This document shows, piece by piece, positions 3,580 to 60,357 of a stretch of DNA of 60,357 nucleotides. The position numbers and the translations under genes were made by a program. Origin of the DNA: Patescibacteria group bacterium (GTDB lineage: Bacteria > Patescibacteriota > Minisyncoccia > Phycocordibacterales > JAKFXT01); NCBI GenBank assembly GCA_038063555.1, contig JBBTUX010000008.1, forward strand, positions 1 to 60,357, in the 5' to 3' direction. Within the stretch, counting starts at the first letter, position 1. Every line of letters starts with the position of its first letter. The notes beneath the pieces were generated by a model, which was not told the origin of the DNA, searched no databases, and was given only the letters and a program-made list of their open reading frames with translations.

Positions 3580-3759
3580 CGAGACGAGGAAAGCGGCGAC
3601 ACAAGAGAAAAAGAAGCGCTGGCAGATTGGGACGAGGTGAACAATAACCGTCTCGAGCAACGCATTATCGCTCGCCACGGTCGCCGTCCCGTAATCGCTT
3701 GATCATCTGTCTTCCTTTTGCAACACCCCCCCCCGCCTCGTGCGGGGGTTTTCGTTTTT
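3580..3759 (+). ncRNA. candidate ~180-nt small RNA of unknown class
   Basis: Sits between the consensus promoter and an intrinsic terminator. GC-rich, contains no ATG, and has internal complementarity (GCGGCGAC/GTCGCCGT, GAGACG/CGTCTC). Confidence 0.5.
3726..3759 (+). terminator. intrinsic terminator
   Basis: CCCCCGC-ctcgt-GCGGGGG followed by TTTTCGTTTTT. Confidence 0.75.
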
Positions 3760-56192: not shown

Positions 56193-57335
56193 TTATAACA
56201 GATGCTTTCTTAACTTGTACGCATTCCCATGTTTCAACATCCCCAAATATGATTTCATTGTTTCTCGACTTGCCTTGCCATTCATTGCCCTTAGCATCCT
56301 CCTTTTTGTTGTGTTTCTCAACACCCTGTGTCTTGCAAAATTCACCCAACCCAGGAAATCAACGCCTGATGATAATGTTTTGATAAATACTTTGTTGGGG
56401 TGAAGTTGAAGTGAAAGTTCCTTTTCTAGAAAACATACGATATATCGTATGTTTTCTAGAAGTTGATTCTTGTTTTGTGAAAGTATGACAAAATCACCAG
56501 CGTATCTTATGTAATATTTAATCTTTAATTTATGTTTAATGAATTGGTCAAATTCATTCATATAGATATTGACCAGAAGTTGAGAGGTGAGATTACCCAA
56601 GGGCAGTCCTTTCTCTTCTATTCCAATGTTCTCAAGAACATTGGAATAGGTAAGAGGGCTGAAACTACTGAAACTGTTGATTACTCTCTCTAAAAGCCAC
56701 GTTGTGTCTTTATCGGTTATGTGTTTCTTAAGAATGTTCAGCAGTATTTCTTGGTCAATTGAAGCAAAGAATTTTCTGATGTCGCATTTCAAGACAAAGC
56801 ATTGTTTAGTGTTGTTTTTTGATACCTTGTAAGCAAAACTTCTGAAACGATTCATTGCCTTGTGTGTGCCTTTACCTACACGGCAGGAATATGAGTCGTA
56901 AATAAACTTCTGGTCAAAGTAAGGATAAAGAACCCTGTGGATGGCATGGTGGAGTAACCTGTCTCTGACACTGGCCTTGTGTATGTTTCGGGGCTTGGGG
57001 TCGCTAATGTTAAAGGCGCTGTATCCTCCGTGAGTGTATGTTTTGGTTTTGAGGTCGTAGTGTAAAGACAGAATATTGTCCATCAGATTAAGCTGGAATT
57101 CTTGCACGTCTTTTTTGTGTTTTTTGCCGCGTAGAAATTCCTGCCACGCTAATAACAAATTATCAACAGAAATGATATTGTGGTAAGTGTGAACAAATCC
57201 AATTTTCTTTCCGTTAAAGCCCCCCCCCTCATCAGTTTTTGCCTGTTCTCCTGCATTTGAAAGATTGTTACATTTTGTGGTATCAATATTATCAAATACT
57301 ACCCAAGATTCATCGTCATACAATTGGACAGACAA
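56193..57335 (-). CDS. DGR-type reverse transcriptase (atypical YAGD catalytic motif; start uncertain, no in-frame ATG before the conserved core)
   Basis: GLPLGNLTSQLLVNIYMNEFD (DGR-specific motif 4), IRYAGDFVIL (motif 5), N-terminal ..NLLLAWQEF... Confidence 0.85.
   Translation of the reverse strand: MSVQLYDDESWVVFDNIDTTKCNNLSNAGEQAKTDEGGGFNGKKIGFVHTYHNIISVDNLLLAWQEFLRGKKHKKDVQEFQLNLMDNILSLHYDLKTKTYTHGGYSAFNISDPKPRNIHKASVRDRLLHHAIHRVLYPYFDQKFIYDSYSCRVGKGTHKAMNRFRSFAYKVSKNNTKQCFVLKCDIRKFFASIDQEILLNILKKHITDKDTTWLLERVINSFSSFSPLTYSNVLENIGIEEKGLPLGNLTSQLLVNIYMNEFDQFIKHKLKIKYYIRYAGDFVILSQNKNQLLENIRYIVCFLEKELSLQLHPNKVFIKTLSSGVDFLGWVNFARHRVLRNTTKRRMLRAMNGKASRETMKSYLGMLKHGNAYKLRKHLL
56425..56460. 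repeat. perfect 36-nt palindrome inside the RT coding sequence
   Basis: TCTAGAAAACATACGATA|TATCGTATGTTTTCTAGA. The core is identical to 48848-48865. Confidence 0.85.
57220..57228. repeat. homopolymer C9 (G9 on the RT strand)
   Basis: Read directly. Lies in the RT 5' region and 10 nt upstream of the avd start. Confidence 0.9.
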
Positions 57336-57601
57336 CTGATAATTTGTTTATAGAAAGCATAGAAGCAATATCTGTTGCAGGTTTTTTGCAGAAAAGTGAC
57401 AAAATTCCTTTTGTGCGTCTCGCTATCAGAAAAATAGATACCATAAAAATATTTTTGCTTGTACTTTGGGAAACAAAATCTTTGGACAATAAAAAATATA
57501 TATCTCTTTCCGAAAAACTTGACCCGATAGGGCGTATGCTCGGTGGTTGGCTTGGACAACTGCAAAAACAAAACTCCCCCACGAAAGCAGGGGAGAAATG
57601 A
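57239..57601 (+). CDS. avd: DGR accessory variability determinant (Avd), encoded on the strand opposite to RT/TR/target
   Basis: ..LPKIHRHTIGQ.. and C-terminal ..IGRMLGGWLGQLQKQ...KAGEK, resembling Bordetella phage Avd (..IPRKHG.., ..VGRILGSWIARVNRKGQAGK). TTG starts only. Confidence 0.75.
   Translation: MPVLLHLKDCYILWYQYYQILPKIHRHTIGQTTDNLFIESIEAISVAGFLQKSDKIPFVRLAIRKIDTIKIFLLVLWETKSLDNKKYISLSEKLDPIGRMLGGWLGQLQKQNSPTKAGEK
57560..57596 (-). terminator. hairpin plus U-tract immediately 3' of TR (minus strand)
   Basis: Minus strand CTCCCC-tgctttcgtg-GGGGAG followed by TTTTGTTTTT. Overlaps the avd 3' end. Confidence 0.5.
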
Positions 57602-57607
57602 GGAGAA

Positions 57608-57734
57608 TTGCGCGAGAGGCAGCAGGATTGTCACCGTTCCAGTCATTGTCGAGCCAGTTGTAGTTCGACACCACCTTGCCCTCGTTCCAGTAACCATAGC
57701 GTACGTACAGGTTGTCGTTCGTCGGGTTGCGGAA
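57608..57734 (-). repeat. DGR template repeat (TR)
   Basis: 127 nt aligning without gaps to 58073-58199. The only differences are 14 positions that are A in TR (minus strand). Confidence 0.88.
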
Positions 57735-57990: not shown

Positions 57991-58015
57991 AGGCCCCGCG
58001 ATATTTGCGGGGCCT
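57991..58015 (-). terminator. hairpin plus U-tract downstream of the VR and target gene
   Basis: Minus strand AGGCCCCGC-aaatatc-GCGGGGCCT followed by TTCATTTTGG. Confidence 0.6.
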
Positions 58016-58067: not shown

Positions 58068-58661
58068 CTAACTTGCGCGAGAGGCAGCAGGACCGCCACC
58101 GTCCCAGTCATCGTCGAGCCAGTCGTAGTTCGACACCACCTCGCCCTCGCTCCAGCAACCACAGCGTACGCACAGGCTGTCGCTCGTCGGGTCGCGGAAG
58201 ATGTCATCCCAGAAGTACACGTAAATCGTGTTACCCTGGTCATTCTTCTTCCAGCTCTCTGGCCAAAGCGCGGGGTTTTCAACGCACTTGTCGAGAACGC
58301 TCGCGCTGACGTTGTCGCCCGCAGCATCTCGTTCCTTGCGGAGATCGTGGCCACCAGCGACTTTGCCGCCCCTCTGATTCTCAGAGAAAACGAGCTCGAG
58401 CCTTGCGTCATCAAGGTAAAGATCGTTGCCGCGCTTCTCGAGCTTCACAATGCCGGACTTGGCCGGGCTCATGCGTTCGGTTCTCTTGAACGGGAGCTTG
58501 CAGGGCACCGAGAAGTCGATCAATACCTCGAGGGCGCTGAGCACGACTCCCTTGAGCCACAACTTGAACTCCTCGAAGCGGGGACGGCCGTTGTTTCCGC
58601 CGACCTGATCCATGAGTTCCGTGAGCGGTCCCTGGAGCTCAGAGACATCAACTTTTTTCAT
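58068..58661 (-). CDS. DGR target protein (197 aa, no signal peptide) with C-terminal variable region
   Basis: Start set at MKKVDVSEL (GGAG 7 nt upstream). The C-terminus FRDPTSDSLCVRCGCWSEGEVVSNYDWLDDDWDGGGPAASRAS corresponds to the TR-encoded FRNPTNDNLYVRYGYWNEGKVVSNYNWLDNDWNGDNPAASRA. Confidence 0.85.
   Translation of the reverse strand: MKKVDVSELQGPLTELMDQVGGNNGRPRFEEFKLWLKGVVLSALEVLIDFSVPCKLPFKRTERMSPAKSGIVKLEKRGNDLYLDDARLELVFSENQRGGKVAGGHDLRKERDAAGDNVSASVLDKCVENPALWPESWKKNDQGNTIYVYFWDDIFRDPTSDSLCVRCGCWSEGEVVSNYDWLDDDWDGGGPAASRAS
58073..58199 (-). repeat. DGR variable repeat (VR)
   Basis: See TR. It ends 5 nt before the target stop codon. Confidence 0.88.
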
Positions 58662-58822
58662 AACAAAACTCCTTATGTTGTGCCAGCGGACCACCGGAAT
58701 GGTAGTCATAGCGAGGAATGGCCTCTATTGTCTTTTTTGTTAAGCCACTTTTCGCTATGACCACCCGCCTGCGCAGGCAGACTCGCAAGTCATATCAAAG
58801 ACCTAATCTATAGTAAAACAAA

Positions 58823-60226
58823 TTAAATCAGTTTTGTCAATATTTCCTTTAAAACCTGCGGGTTGGCACTCCCTTTGGACTTTTTCATGCCTTGACCCAC
58901 TAGAAATTGAATTGAAGATTCTTTGCCAGATTTATACTCTTCAACCGCTTTTCCGTTTTCGGCAATGACTTCTTCGGCAATTTTTTTAAGTAAACCTTCA
59001 TCGCTTTGTTGCAAAAGCCCTTTTTCTTTTGCCAAAATTTCAGGAATGGCATCCTCGTCAAAAAGAAAAGTTAGAAGGTCTTTTGCGCCACGAGAAGAAA
59101 TCTTGTTTTCTGATGTCATTTTTATAAGGTCGGCAAAATTCTTGGTAGAAACGGCAAAATTGCGATTAAAATTTTTCACAAGTCCTGCTAAGTCCGAGGT
59201 AATATAATTTGAAGCAAGCTGAATCAATTTTTTATTTTCTTCCAATTCTCCAGAAACCTCATCAAAAAATTTACCGAACAAATCATTTGTCACATACATT
59301 TCAGCATCTTCTGCTTTTAATCCTTTTTTAATGTATCTTTCTCTTTTTTCCCAAGGTAATTCGGGTAATTCTTTTTTAAGGTTTTCCTTGGAAAATTCCG
59401 TGATTTCAGAAATATAAAGTTTTGGTAAATCTGGGTCTGGAAAATATCTATAATCATGTGAATCTTCTTTAAGACGCTGACTAAAAGTGGTTAAATTATT
59501 TTCATTCCAACCACGAGTTTCTTGAATAACGTTTCCCCCTTCATTCAAAAGTTTGCTCTGTCTTTCTATTTCATAGGCAATTGCGCCCGACACAGCTTTG
59601 AACGAATTTAAATTTTTGACCTCCACCTTTGTTCCTCTTTTTCCTTTAAGCGCAACCGAAATATTGGCTTCCACCCTCATTTGTCCTTTTTCCATATTAG
59701 CTTCTCCCGCCCCAACATAACGTAAAAGAAGTTGTAATTCTTTAGCAAATTTAACTGCGGTTTCCGCATCATGTATTACAGGTTCTGTTACCAACTCCAT
59801 AAGAGGCACGCCAGCGCGATTGTAATCAATTAAACTAATATCTCCTTCGTGTTGGGAACGAGCGGTATCTTCTTCAAGGTGAACACGAGTCAATTCGACT
59901 CCATCTATTTCCCCACCTAAAACAAGGGGGTGTTTATATTGACTTATTTGATAACCCTTCGGAATATCTGGATAAAAATAATTTTTTCTATCAAATTCAG
60001 TGAAATCCGCCAGTTTACCTTTGACAGCTATGCCAATTTTTAAAACATTTTTTATAGCTTGTTTATTAATTACAGGAAGTGTCCCGGGGTGCGCCATGCA
60101 AATGGGGCAAATATTTTTGTTCGGAGTTTTTTCATCAGGATCATTCTTACAGGAGCAAAACATTTTCGTGTTTGTCTTTAACTCCGCATGCACTTCTAAG
60201 CCGATGGTGGGAATGTATTTGGACAT
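58823..60226 (-). CDS. gatB: Asp/Glu-tRNA amidotransferase subunit B
   Basis: ..IGLEVHAEL.T.TKMFCSC.., 467 aa with a C-terminal YqeY-like tail. Confidence 0.9.
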   Translation of the reverse strand: MSKYIPTIGLEVHAELKTNTKMFCSCKNDPDEKTPNKNICPICMAHPGTLPVINKQAIKNVLKIGIAVKGKLADFTEFDRKNYFYPDIPKGYQISQYKHPLVLGGEIDGVELTRVHLEEDTARSQHEGDISLIDYNRAGVPLMELVTEPVIHDAETAVKFAKELQLLLRYVGAGEANMEKGQMRVEANISVALKGKRGTKVEVKNLNSFKAVSGAIAYEIERQSKLLNEGGNVIQETRGWNENNLTTFSQRLKEDSHDYRYFPDPDLPKLYISEITEFSKENLKKELPELPWEKRERYIKKGLKAEDAEMYVTNDLFGKFFDEVSGELEENKKLIQLASNYITSDLAGLVKNFNRNFAVSTKNFADLIKMTSENKISSRGAKDLLTFLFDEDAIPEILAKEKGLLQQSDEGLLKKIAEEVIAENGKAVEEYKSGKESSIQFLVGQGMKKSKGSANPQVLKEILTKLI

Positions 60227-60234
60227 GGTAATGA

Positions 60235-60357
60235 TTATAGAGAAATTACTGATAAAGGGAAATCTCTATATTCTTTTTTTAGTTTGTGTGTATTCCCCCA
60301 CCTCAACATCCCTAAATATGATTGTCTGGTATCTTCTTTCGGATTATTCTCTAGATT
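60235..60357 (-). CDS. 3' end of a second DGR-type reverse transcriptase gene (continues off the right edge)
   Basis: Own translation: ..NLENNPKEDTRQSYLGMLRWGNTHKLKKEYRDFPLSVISL stop. Compare the first RT C-terminus ..RETMKSYLGMLKHGNAYKLRKHLL. There is nucleotide similarity to 56193-56290. Confidence 0.6.
   Translation of the reverse strand, partial: NLENNPKEDTRQSYLGMLRWGNTHKLKKEYRDFPLSVISL

Follow-up and report, generated by a model that had tools for sequence, protein, structure and literature searches.

The open reading frame at positions 56193 to 57335 on the minus strand of the window, which is the whole 60,357-nucleotide stretch of DNA analysed here, encodes the reverse transcriptase (RT1) of the second of two tandem DGR cassettes of Patescibacteria type. 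The reading that we prefer, to which we assign a probability of about 0.55, is that this RT is disabled and lies behind the poly-G tract that is characteristic of its clade. RT1 carries a genuine GAT-to-GGT change by which the first catalytic Asp of the YADD box is lost. Moreover, at a tract length of nine G residues the conserved core of RT1 has no in-frame ATG or GTG, nor a nearby TTG. With an RT that would be dead or crippled, and barely translated as well, cassette 2 would no longer rewrite its variable repeat, VR2, by itself. The window is one entire contig out of the 20 that make up the 672-kb genome of an ultra-small member of the Patescibacteria from Hainich groundwater. The presence of a DGR is usually judged from its RT, template repeat (TR) and variable repeat (VR); surveys that count 'active' DGRs by architecture would overcount if they include complete-looking cassettes, such as this one, whose RT lacks the catalytic Asp and an in-frame start.

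Organization of the two cassettes

Read along the minus strand, cassette 2 is composed of the target gene with its VR, a hairpin, the TR, a second hairpin with a T-run, an antisense avd gene, the poly-G tract and RT1. Target gene 2 (58068-58709) encodes a protein of 213 amino acids that matches no known family, and VR2 (58073-58199) forms its 3' end. Downstream of both lies a GC-rich inverted repeat (57991-58015). TR2 occupies positions 57608-57734 and is directly followed by a GC-rich hairpin and a T-run (57574-57595), which together resemble a terminator; the hairpin and a GTTTTG motif after the TR are found in most of the relatives examined. All of these elements are on the minus strand. 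The accessory variability determinant, avd2 (57239-57601), is on the plus strand, antisense to the RT, the TR and the target, and it starts with a TTG located 10 nt from the tract. Its product matches the bAvd profile (E=1e-8) and DivGenRetAVD (E=8.6e-14, profile positions 2-103 of 104), with both scores below the curated cut-offs, and we identify it as the accessory protein of the DGR. The tract itself, G9 on the minus strand and C9 on the plus strand, spans 57220-57228, between the start of avd2 and the RT1 core. TR2 and VR2 differ at 14 positions, every one a TR adenine, and VR2 ends the target ORF, which is the TR/VR relationship that defines a DGR.

The RT fragment that the sequence-only reading had noticed at the window edge (60235-60357, minus strand) is the C-terminus of a complete enzyme, RT2 (P0002), which has 354 amino acids and an intact YADD box. 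In a 202-kb ENA contig from this population, the end of the window continues into contig C11, which completes a second cassette, cassette 1. Its order, upstream of the window end, is target1, TR1, antisense avd1, a G9 tract and RT2, about 4 kb from RT1; the two cassettes are separated by gatB (58823-60226). A search of the genome for further TR/VR pairs beyond these two returned none. RT1 and RT2 are 81% identical, with a dN/dS of 0.12 at a dS of about 1.1. Between the cassettes, divergence is strong in the avd genes, the TRs and the hairpins that flank the TRs; the non-coding parts are about 44% identical, which is near the level of unrelated sequences. Cassettes 1 and 2 are old paralogues.

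RT1 and its catalytic box

Read from the TTG at 57335, RT1 has 380 amino acids and matches RVT_1 with E=5.5e-24; its conserved core begins near position 57203. The closest solved structure is that of the Bordetella RT, bRT (8ub7, E=3.4e-34). Motif 4 of RT1 reads LPLGNLTSQ, in agreement with the [ILV]GxxxSQ signature of DGR-class RTs. Motif 5 is the box tac gct ggt gat (56493-56504, minus strand), which codes for YAGD where DGR RTs have a catalytic YxDD. As the sequence-only reading had noted, the full stretch tac gct ggt gat ttt (YAGDF) runs from 56504 to 56490 and the first catalytic Asp is absent; its place is taken by a Gly, encoded at 56496-56498. In the alignment with bRT 8ub7, this Gly pairs with the first Asp of YMDD. 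In RTs generally, the first Asp of YxDD serves as a metal ligand. Mutants of bRT carrying YMAD, YMDA, YMAA or SMAA have all lost the RT-dependent priming-site product (PMC5703328). Because the YMAD mutant, which is the equivalent of the RT1 box, is defective, we infer that RT1 would be catalytically dead or severely crippled.

The rest of the protein is well conserved. When RT1 was compared with 120 homologues, it deviated at a single one of the 128 columns that are at least 95% conserved. That column is the Gly of YAGD, and the other 127 are kept; RT2 deviates at two of the same 128. Together with the dN/dS of 0.12, this conservation argues against RT1 as a pseudogene in long decay. It leaves two possibilities, a recent lesion or a protein on which selection still acts; RT1 looks recently disabled, and probably is. 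Conservation that is perfect outside the Gly would fit continued function equally well.

Authenticity and distribution of YAGD

The YAGD box is real and is no error. The ENA contig from sample R3 is identical to the window sequence, including YAGD, and an independent assembly of RT1 from the R2 replicate (L150) has YAGD as well. The same GGT is present in a solitary remnant of an RT 3' end elsewhere in the genome (contig C17, 23452-23961), which was recovered from sample R1 too. In RT1, the GGT lies 8 nt from bases that tell RT1 from this remnant, and its assembled k-mers must therefore exist in the reads.

We regard it as very improbable that GGT, G9 or both were produced by sequencing or assembly and that the true gene has YADD and, with G10, an in-frame ATG. 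Coverage is low (9-14x), one replicate assembly has G8, so that the tract is either hard to call or truly variable, and the R2 assembly contains an RT2-like mosaic segment within RT1 (56693-56795), which indicates that switching between paralogue paths does occur. Against this, the assemblies of two separate samples have GGT in RT1, and at least two samples have it in the C17 remnant; in RT1 it lies within 8 nt of bases specific to this copy. G9 was obtained from five samples with different assemblers (SPAdes-type ENA contigs and Logan), and G10 from none.

Among the best 120 homologues, 117 have YADD and one has YSDD, and YAGD is found in the window protein only. Likewise, the 96 RT genes taken from the genomes of relatives comprise 93 with YADD, one with YCDD and one with YVDD. 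In total, YAGD occurs in none of about 215 close relatives (0/119 homologues and 0/95 genomic relatives). A scan of a metagenome collection with the pattern Y[IV]RYAGDF[VI] gave seven matches. Five of them are group II intron-type RTs, one is the remnant of this organism itself and one is a DGR-type RT. This sole other DGR-type match is an unrelated RT located at a contig end. YAGD as the mark of a clade, for which an alignment against DGR RT families had been proposed, was rejected when the alignment was made: there is one sporadic metagenome case and no clade. As far as the compared sequences indicate, the Asp-to-Gly change is private to this organism.

Reading frame and start codons of RT1

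The in-frame stretch upstream of the RT1 core (...LSVQLYDDESWVVFDNIDTTKCNNLSNAGEQAKTDEGGGFNGKKIGFVHTYHNIIS; ...GKKIGFVHTYHNIISVDNLLLAWQEF) contains possible start codons at two positions only, the TTGs at 57335 and 57323. There is no ATG or GTG in this frame upstream of the core, so the original description of the ORF as open only to TTG codons is correct. An ATG (57230-57232) lies beside the tract, separated from it by a single A, and a second one (57254-57256), in the same frame, is the antisense of a His codon of avd2; both are on the minus strand. At G9, the ATG at 57232 opens an ORF of 27 codons that ends at 57149. In silico, both ATGs enter the RT1 frame when one G is added (G10), as had been predicted, and equally when two are removed (G7). 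Downstream of the tract, the only in-frame near-cognate candidate for a start is an ATT (57201-57203, minus strand), 16 nt after the tract, which we list as a putative site. The ATG at 57232 is also followed by G GGG GGG, formally a slippery heptamer, from which the ORF in the 0 frame continues to the stop at 57149. From this arrangement of codons, RT1 would be barely translated in the dominant genotype.

The poly-G tract in the Hainich population

The G9 homopolymer reported at 57220-57228 can be read directly from the sequence. At the base composition of this genome, about 0.4 runs of nine or more G or C residues are expected in 672 kb. Five are found, and each of the two RT genes has one of these at its 5' end. 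In length and position, the tract falls within the range of contingency-locus homopolymers (about 8 residues or more in a 5' coding or control region).

Contigs of other samples were fetched through exact matches to the flanking proteins and give the assembly consensus only. In these, the RT1 tract is G9 in five samples, among them R3, SRR32696712, SRR32696678 and SRR32696714, and G8 in one, the R2 replicate of H41, which differs in nothing else over 3.36 kb. At 9x coverage, a homopolymer error could also produce the G8 of this replicate. G10 was not seen in the assembly consensus of any of the six samples. The RT2 tract is G9 in all four contigs that cover it. Exact look-ups with Avd1 and Avd2 for further samples of the tracts returned one contig or none. 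At G9, the conserved upstream ATG of RT2 is out of frame and would need G8; the leader ORF stops at a TAA just past the tract.

The slipped-strand ON/OFF switch that had been proposed for the diversification machinery therefore holds in part: tract length does appear unstable (G8 against G9), but the length predicted to be ON, G10, never appeared.

The poly-G tract across the clade

The sequence-only reading had treated the tract as a peculiarity of the RT1 gene, which it is not. We compared 96 related RT genes, with 58-85% identity in the N-terminal core, and a homologous run of G6 to G13 is present in 89 of these Patescibacteria DGR RTs (93%), between the antisense avd and the RT. It is located 26-91 nt before a conserved 'IIS' anchor, and 9 and 10 are its commonest lengths. 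In one of the 96, (GA)n replaces it. The avd gene is antisense in 95 of the 98 loci of relatives, and its TTG start is about 10 nt from the tract. The two genes thus meet head to head over a very short junction, most of which is tract.

The position of the RT start relative to the tract varies. An ATG, GTG or TTG is available downstream in 67 of the 89 loci; at 22 of these 67 there is an in-frame stop between the tract and the start, and the tract is therefore untranslated there. At eight loci besides RT1, the only start is upstream, which makes the tract coding; RT2, in which a TTG is fused to G9, is one of them. A further 13 relatives are without any in-frame start. Their RT ORFs are intact, with YADD and 310-331 amino acids after the anchor (median 323), and in each of them a change of one G would put an upstream start in frame. 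Furthermore, G8, G10 and G11 occur, in consensus sequences, at three loci whose 120-nt flanks are 99-100% identical. The tract thus appears to change faster than its surroundings.

These comparisons show that the G9 tract of RT1 is the standard, length-unstable poly-G of the clade at the head-to-head junction of avd and RT. Since the start is mostly downstream of the tract in the relatives, frame switching is not its general role. At the level of the clade, then, the switch proposal keeps its conserved, unstable element and loses general frame switching. Changes in tract length may modulate expression of the RT, and perhaps of avd, across the clade, and at loci with the start upstream of the tract a change in length would shift the reading frame. 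The comparative data and the variation in length between samples are thus suggestive of an ON/OFF switch. Should RT expression be gated by the tract, then targeted hypermutation in these organisms would itself be phase-variable.

Other roles for the tract were considered. An ordinary Shine-Dalgarno sequence is unlikely, with a motif of that kind in only 3-6% of the long genes of this genome and a commonest spacing between tract and start of 13 nt in the relatives. It is also unlikely to be part of the TR RNA; the conserved hairpin and T-run close the TR unit about 350 nt earlier. Rfam gave nothing significant around the TR, avd and the tract, and promoters of sigma-70 type around the tract were no more frequent than in shuffled sequence. 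In the DGR literature searched, we found no mention of a poly-G tract or of variation in the catalytic box.

Mutation spectra of the variable repeats

All 14 differences between TR2 and VR2 change an A of the TR into a G of the VR. In cassette 1, TR1 and VR1 differ by ten A>T, seven A>G and two A>C. Relatives with YADD are also biased towards A>G, which accounts for 190 of 317 pooled differences (60%) and for up to 86% at single loci. An exclusively A-to-G spectrum as the signature of a YAGD enzyme was therefore rejected; 14 of 14 is extreme and requires no special enzyme. TR2 and VR2 differ at adenines only, with no other decay, and mutagenic homing in cassette 2 was therefore recent. The VR2 consensus is identical in at least eight samples, one of which comes from a second well and has a different SNP in the flank, and that of VR1 is equally invariant in four samples. 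Since VR1 is as static as VR2, the invariance of VR2 says nothing specific about RT1, and VR data at the level of the assembly consensus cannot separate the two cassettes. No VR variants of either target were found in the protein collection.

The spectra bear on two alternatives to the preferred reading. In the first, RT1 with its YAGD box is still active, weakened or with an altered error spectrum, and cassette 2 is still diversifying; we consider this unlikely. The same low estimate covers, jointly with it, the way in which such an enzyme might be supplied in small amounts: translation could begin at a TTG far upstream or at the ATT at 57203, or the ribosome or the RNA polymerase could slip by -1 on the G run. 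RT1 is otherwise conserved and has been under purifying selection over its history, the TR2/VR2 differences are confined to adenine sites, and their uniform A-to-G character sets them apart from cassette 1. The formally slippery heptamer would offer a route to translation, and the 13 startless relatives with intact RTs suggest that the clade may tolerate or use this state. These points are opposed by the defect of the bRT mutants with a single Asp of the YMDD box replaced (PMC5703328), by a distribution of YAGD among relatives and metagenomes that is unlike that of a tolerated variant, by the general A-to-G bias of the YADD relatives and by the lack of variation of VR2 across at least eight samples.

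In the second alternative, RT1 is dead and cassette 2 is kept running by RT2, which would act in trans on the TR2 RNA. This is possible, unsupported and, in our estimate, improbable. A complete RT2 with YADD, whose own G9 has an in-frame TTG, is encoded 4 kb upstream; RT1 and RT2 have long identical tracts in common besides their overall identity of 81%, and TR2 and VR2 are without decay at non-adenine positions. However, the divergence of Avd1 from Avd2, of the TRs and of the flanking RNA elements, with non-coding identity of about 44%, means that rescue in trans is not assured. The VR1 and VR2 spectra differ, and neither VR varies between samples. The idea that RT1 is a decaying RT which relies on the second one was thus right about the loss of the Asp and about the presence of a complete YADD RT 4 kb away. 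It fits less well with an RT1 that is otherwise conserved, and hence freshly disabled, and with a rescue that cannot be taken for granted.

RT remnants and probable gene conversion

Apart from RT1 and RT2, the genome contains RT remnants on contigs C17 and C2 and at the start of C6. Genomes of the same genus have only a degraded, non-syntenic RT remnant with YVDD; an orthologous RT1, which was sought in these genomes to date the mutation, was not found. The remnants on C17 and C2, together with the one in the same-genus genome, show that loss of RTs is common in this lineage.

Aligned as nucleotides, RT1, RT2 and the C17 remnant form a mosaic of identity levels. RT1 and RT2 have identical tracts of 110-130 nt in common, and the GGT lies within some 110 nt over which RT1 and the C17 remnant are nearly identical. 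From this mosaic and these common tracts, we infer that gene conversion between the RT copies is active and probably moved the lesion in one direction or the other. In the preferred reading, the lesion would be recent and would have been moved by gene conversion between RT1 and a remnant copy.

RT1 might instead be kept for a non-catalytic role, such as binding of Avd2 or TR2 RNA, a dominant-negative brake, or a donor of gene conversion to RT2, which seems to us quite unlikely. Such a role would agree with the alteration of the catalytic residue only, with 127 of 128 conserved positions kept, and with the conversion tracts evident between the RT copies; RTs of organellar type and of bacterial group II introns that carry YAGD do occur in metagenomes. 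Yet DGR RTs with YAGD form no clade, RT1 has no in-frame start at the dominant tract length, and nothing sets it apart from a very recent knockout.

Comparison with known systems

The DGR of Bordetella phage BPP-1 comprises bRT, Avd, the TR and the VR of mtd. Cassette 2 resembles it in the LGNLTSQ of motif 4, in the Avd helper, in TR/VR differences that fall at TR adenines only, in the position of the VR at the target 3' end and in the GC-rich hairpin after the VR; the YAGD of RT1 corresponds to the defective YMAD mutant of bRT. In contrast to BPP-1, avd is antisense here and located between the TR and the RT, a hairpin and T-run follow the TR, poly-G separates avd from the RT, the first Asp has been lost naturally, and there are two tandem cassettes. 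The 'DGR clade 2' of Roux et al. 2021 consists of cellular DGRs restricted to Patescibacteria (PMC8144416). The present cassettes agree with that clade in host phylum and in their aquatic, groundwater source, and RT1 is 60-74% identical to hundreds of Patescibacteria RTs. An avd gene in antisense, poly-G before the RT and a hairpin behind the TR are shared with Patescibacteria DGRs, whereas RT1 is the sole YAGD among the roughly 215 close relatives examined. A natural D-to-G allele of this kind is a ready negative control for the biochemistry of the enzymes of this uncultured clade.

Group II intron maturases with a degenerate YADD have likewise kept the RT fold and lost the catalytic Asp, and versions with YAGD appeared in our pattern scan. 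Unlike RT1, in which the change is private to one organism, they have a separate, selected function in splicing and form lineages.

The tract also resembles the poly-G/C contingency loci of Campylobacter, Neisseria, Haemophilus and Bordetella. As in those loci, a homopolymer of 8-11 G or C residues is found where a gene begins or in a divergent control region; in the consensus sequences compared here, its length differs among near-identical loci and among samples of one population, and a change of one G would bring an ATG into frame. It differs from these loci in that the predicted ON length was not seen here, the tract is mostly upstream of the start in the relatives, the controlled gene is itself a mutator and switching is predicted from sequence. 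A wider and more tentative interpretation is that the poly-G of the clade is a heritable, stochastic gate on hypermutation, that both cassettes are now 'off', that the knockout was spread by conversion and that a phase-silenced mutator is decaying. Under this interpretation, 'off' is relative to the conserved upstream ATGs, for which RT1 lacks a single G and RT2 has a G in excess.

Palindromes and a mosaic segment in RT1

The reverse transcriptase gene of the second DGR cassette, RT1, contains two palindromes. The first, a perfect palindrome of 38 nt at window positions 56424-56461, encodes LENIRYIVCFLE, and the second, a near-perfect palindrome of 30 nt at 56619-56648, encodes YSNVLENIG and is held in an 18-residue insert that is absent from many relatives. 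The cores of both are found again on other contigs of the genome, at C17:23686, C8:48848, C6:45408, C2:66940, C2:67236 and C10:16660. In appearance, they are small palindromic elements, dispersed through the genome and tolerated in frame.

In the R2 replicate assembly from Hainich groundwater well H41 (L150), RT1 segment 56693-56795 carries the sequence of RT2, the complete YADD reverse transcriptase of the neighbouring cassette, with 22 substitutions in about 100 nt compared with the window. This segment is either a true gene-conversion variant of the population or an assembler jump between the paralogues.

YAGD motifs and reverse transcriptase remnants

A metagenome scan gave a sole further DGR-like YAGD, in an unrelated DGR-type reverse transcriptase (L158:4493-4518, JGI Ga0315279_10041066) that reads YIRYAGDF and is otherwise intact as far as the contig end. 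The genome itself has three reverse transcriptase remnants, none of which lies within a DGR cassette. The remnant at C17:23452-23961 comprises the C-terminal 130 residues and has YAGD, as in RT1; that at C2:10269-10985 (239 residues) lacks the N-terminus and retains YADD; the third is located at C6:16-90. In a genome of the same genus (L026), the reverse transcriptase is truncated and has an internal stop.

Homopolymer tracts

The poly-G tract, which separates the antisense avd from the reverse transcriptase gene, is replaced by a (GA)n repeat in L014 and takes the form of G8 within (GA)n in L018. In L085 a run of N starts 1 base upstream of the tract and thus places an assembly gap right at it. 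The other long G/C homopolymers of the genome, C9 at window 3726-3734, C9 at C16:3418-3426 and C10 at C16:33936-33945, the last immediately followed by a T-run, may be additional contingency tracts.

Putative transcription and translation signals

Immediately 3' of the template repeat (TR), most relatives examined have a hairpin followed by GTTTTG(T/C)TTT, for example at L037:9620-9660, as does the window at 57560-57607. This element and the antisense avd's stop codon lie back to back, and the element looks like a common terminator of the TR transcript. Across the whole genome, Shine-Dalgarno-like motifs precede just 3-6% of the long ATG-started ORFs, and A-rich upstream regions are found in their place.
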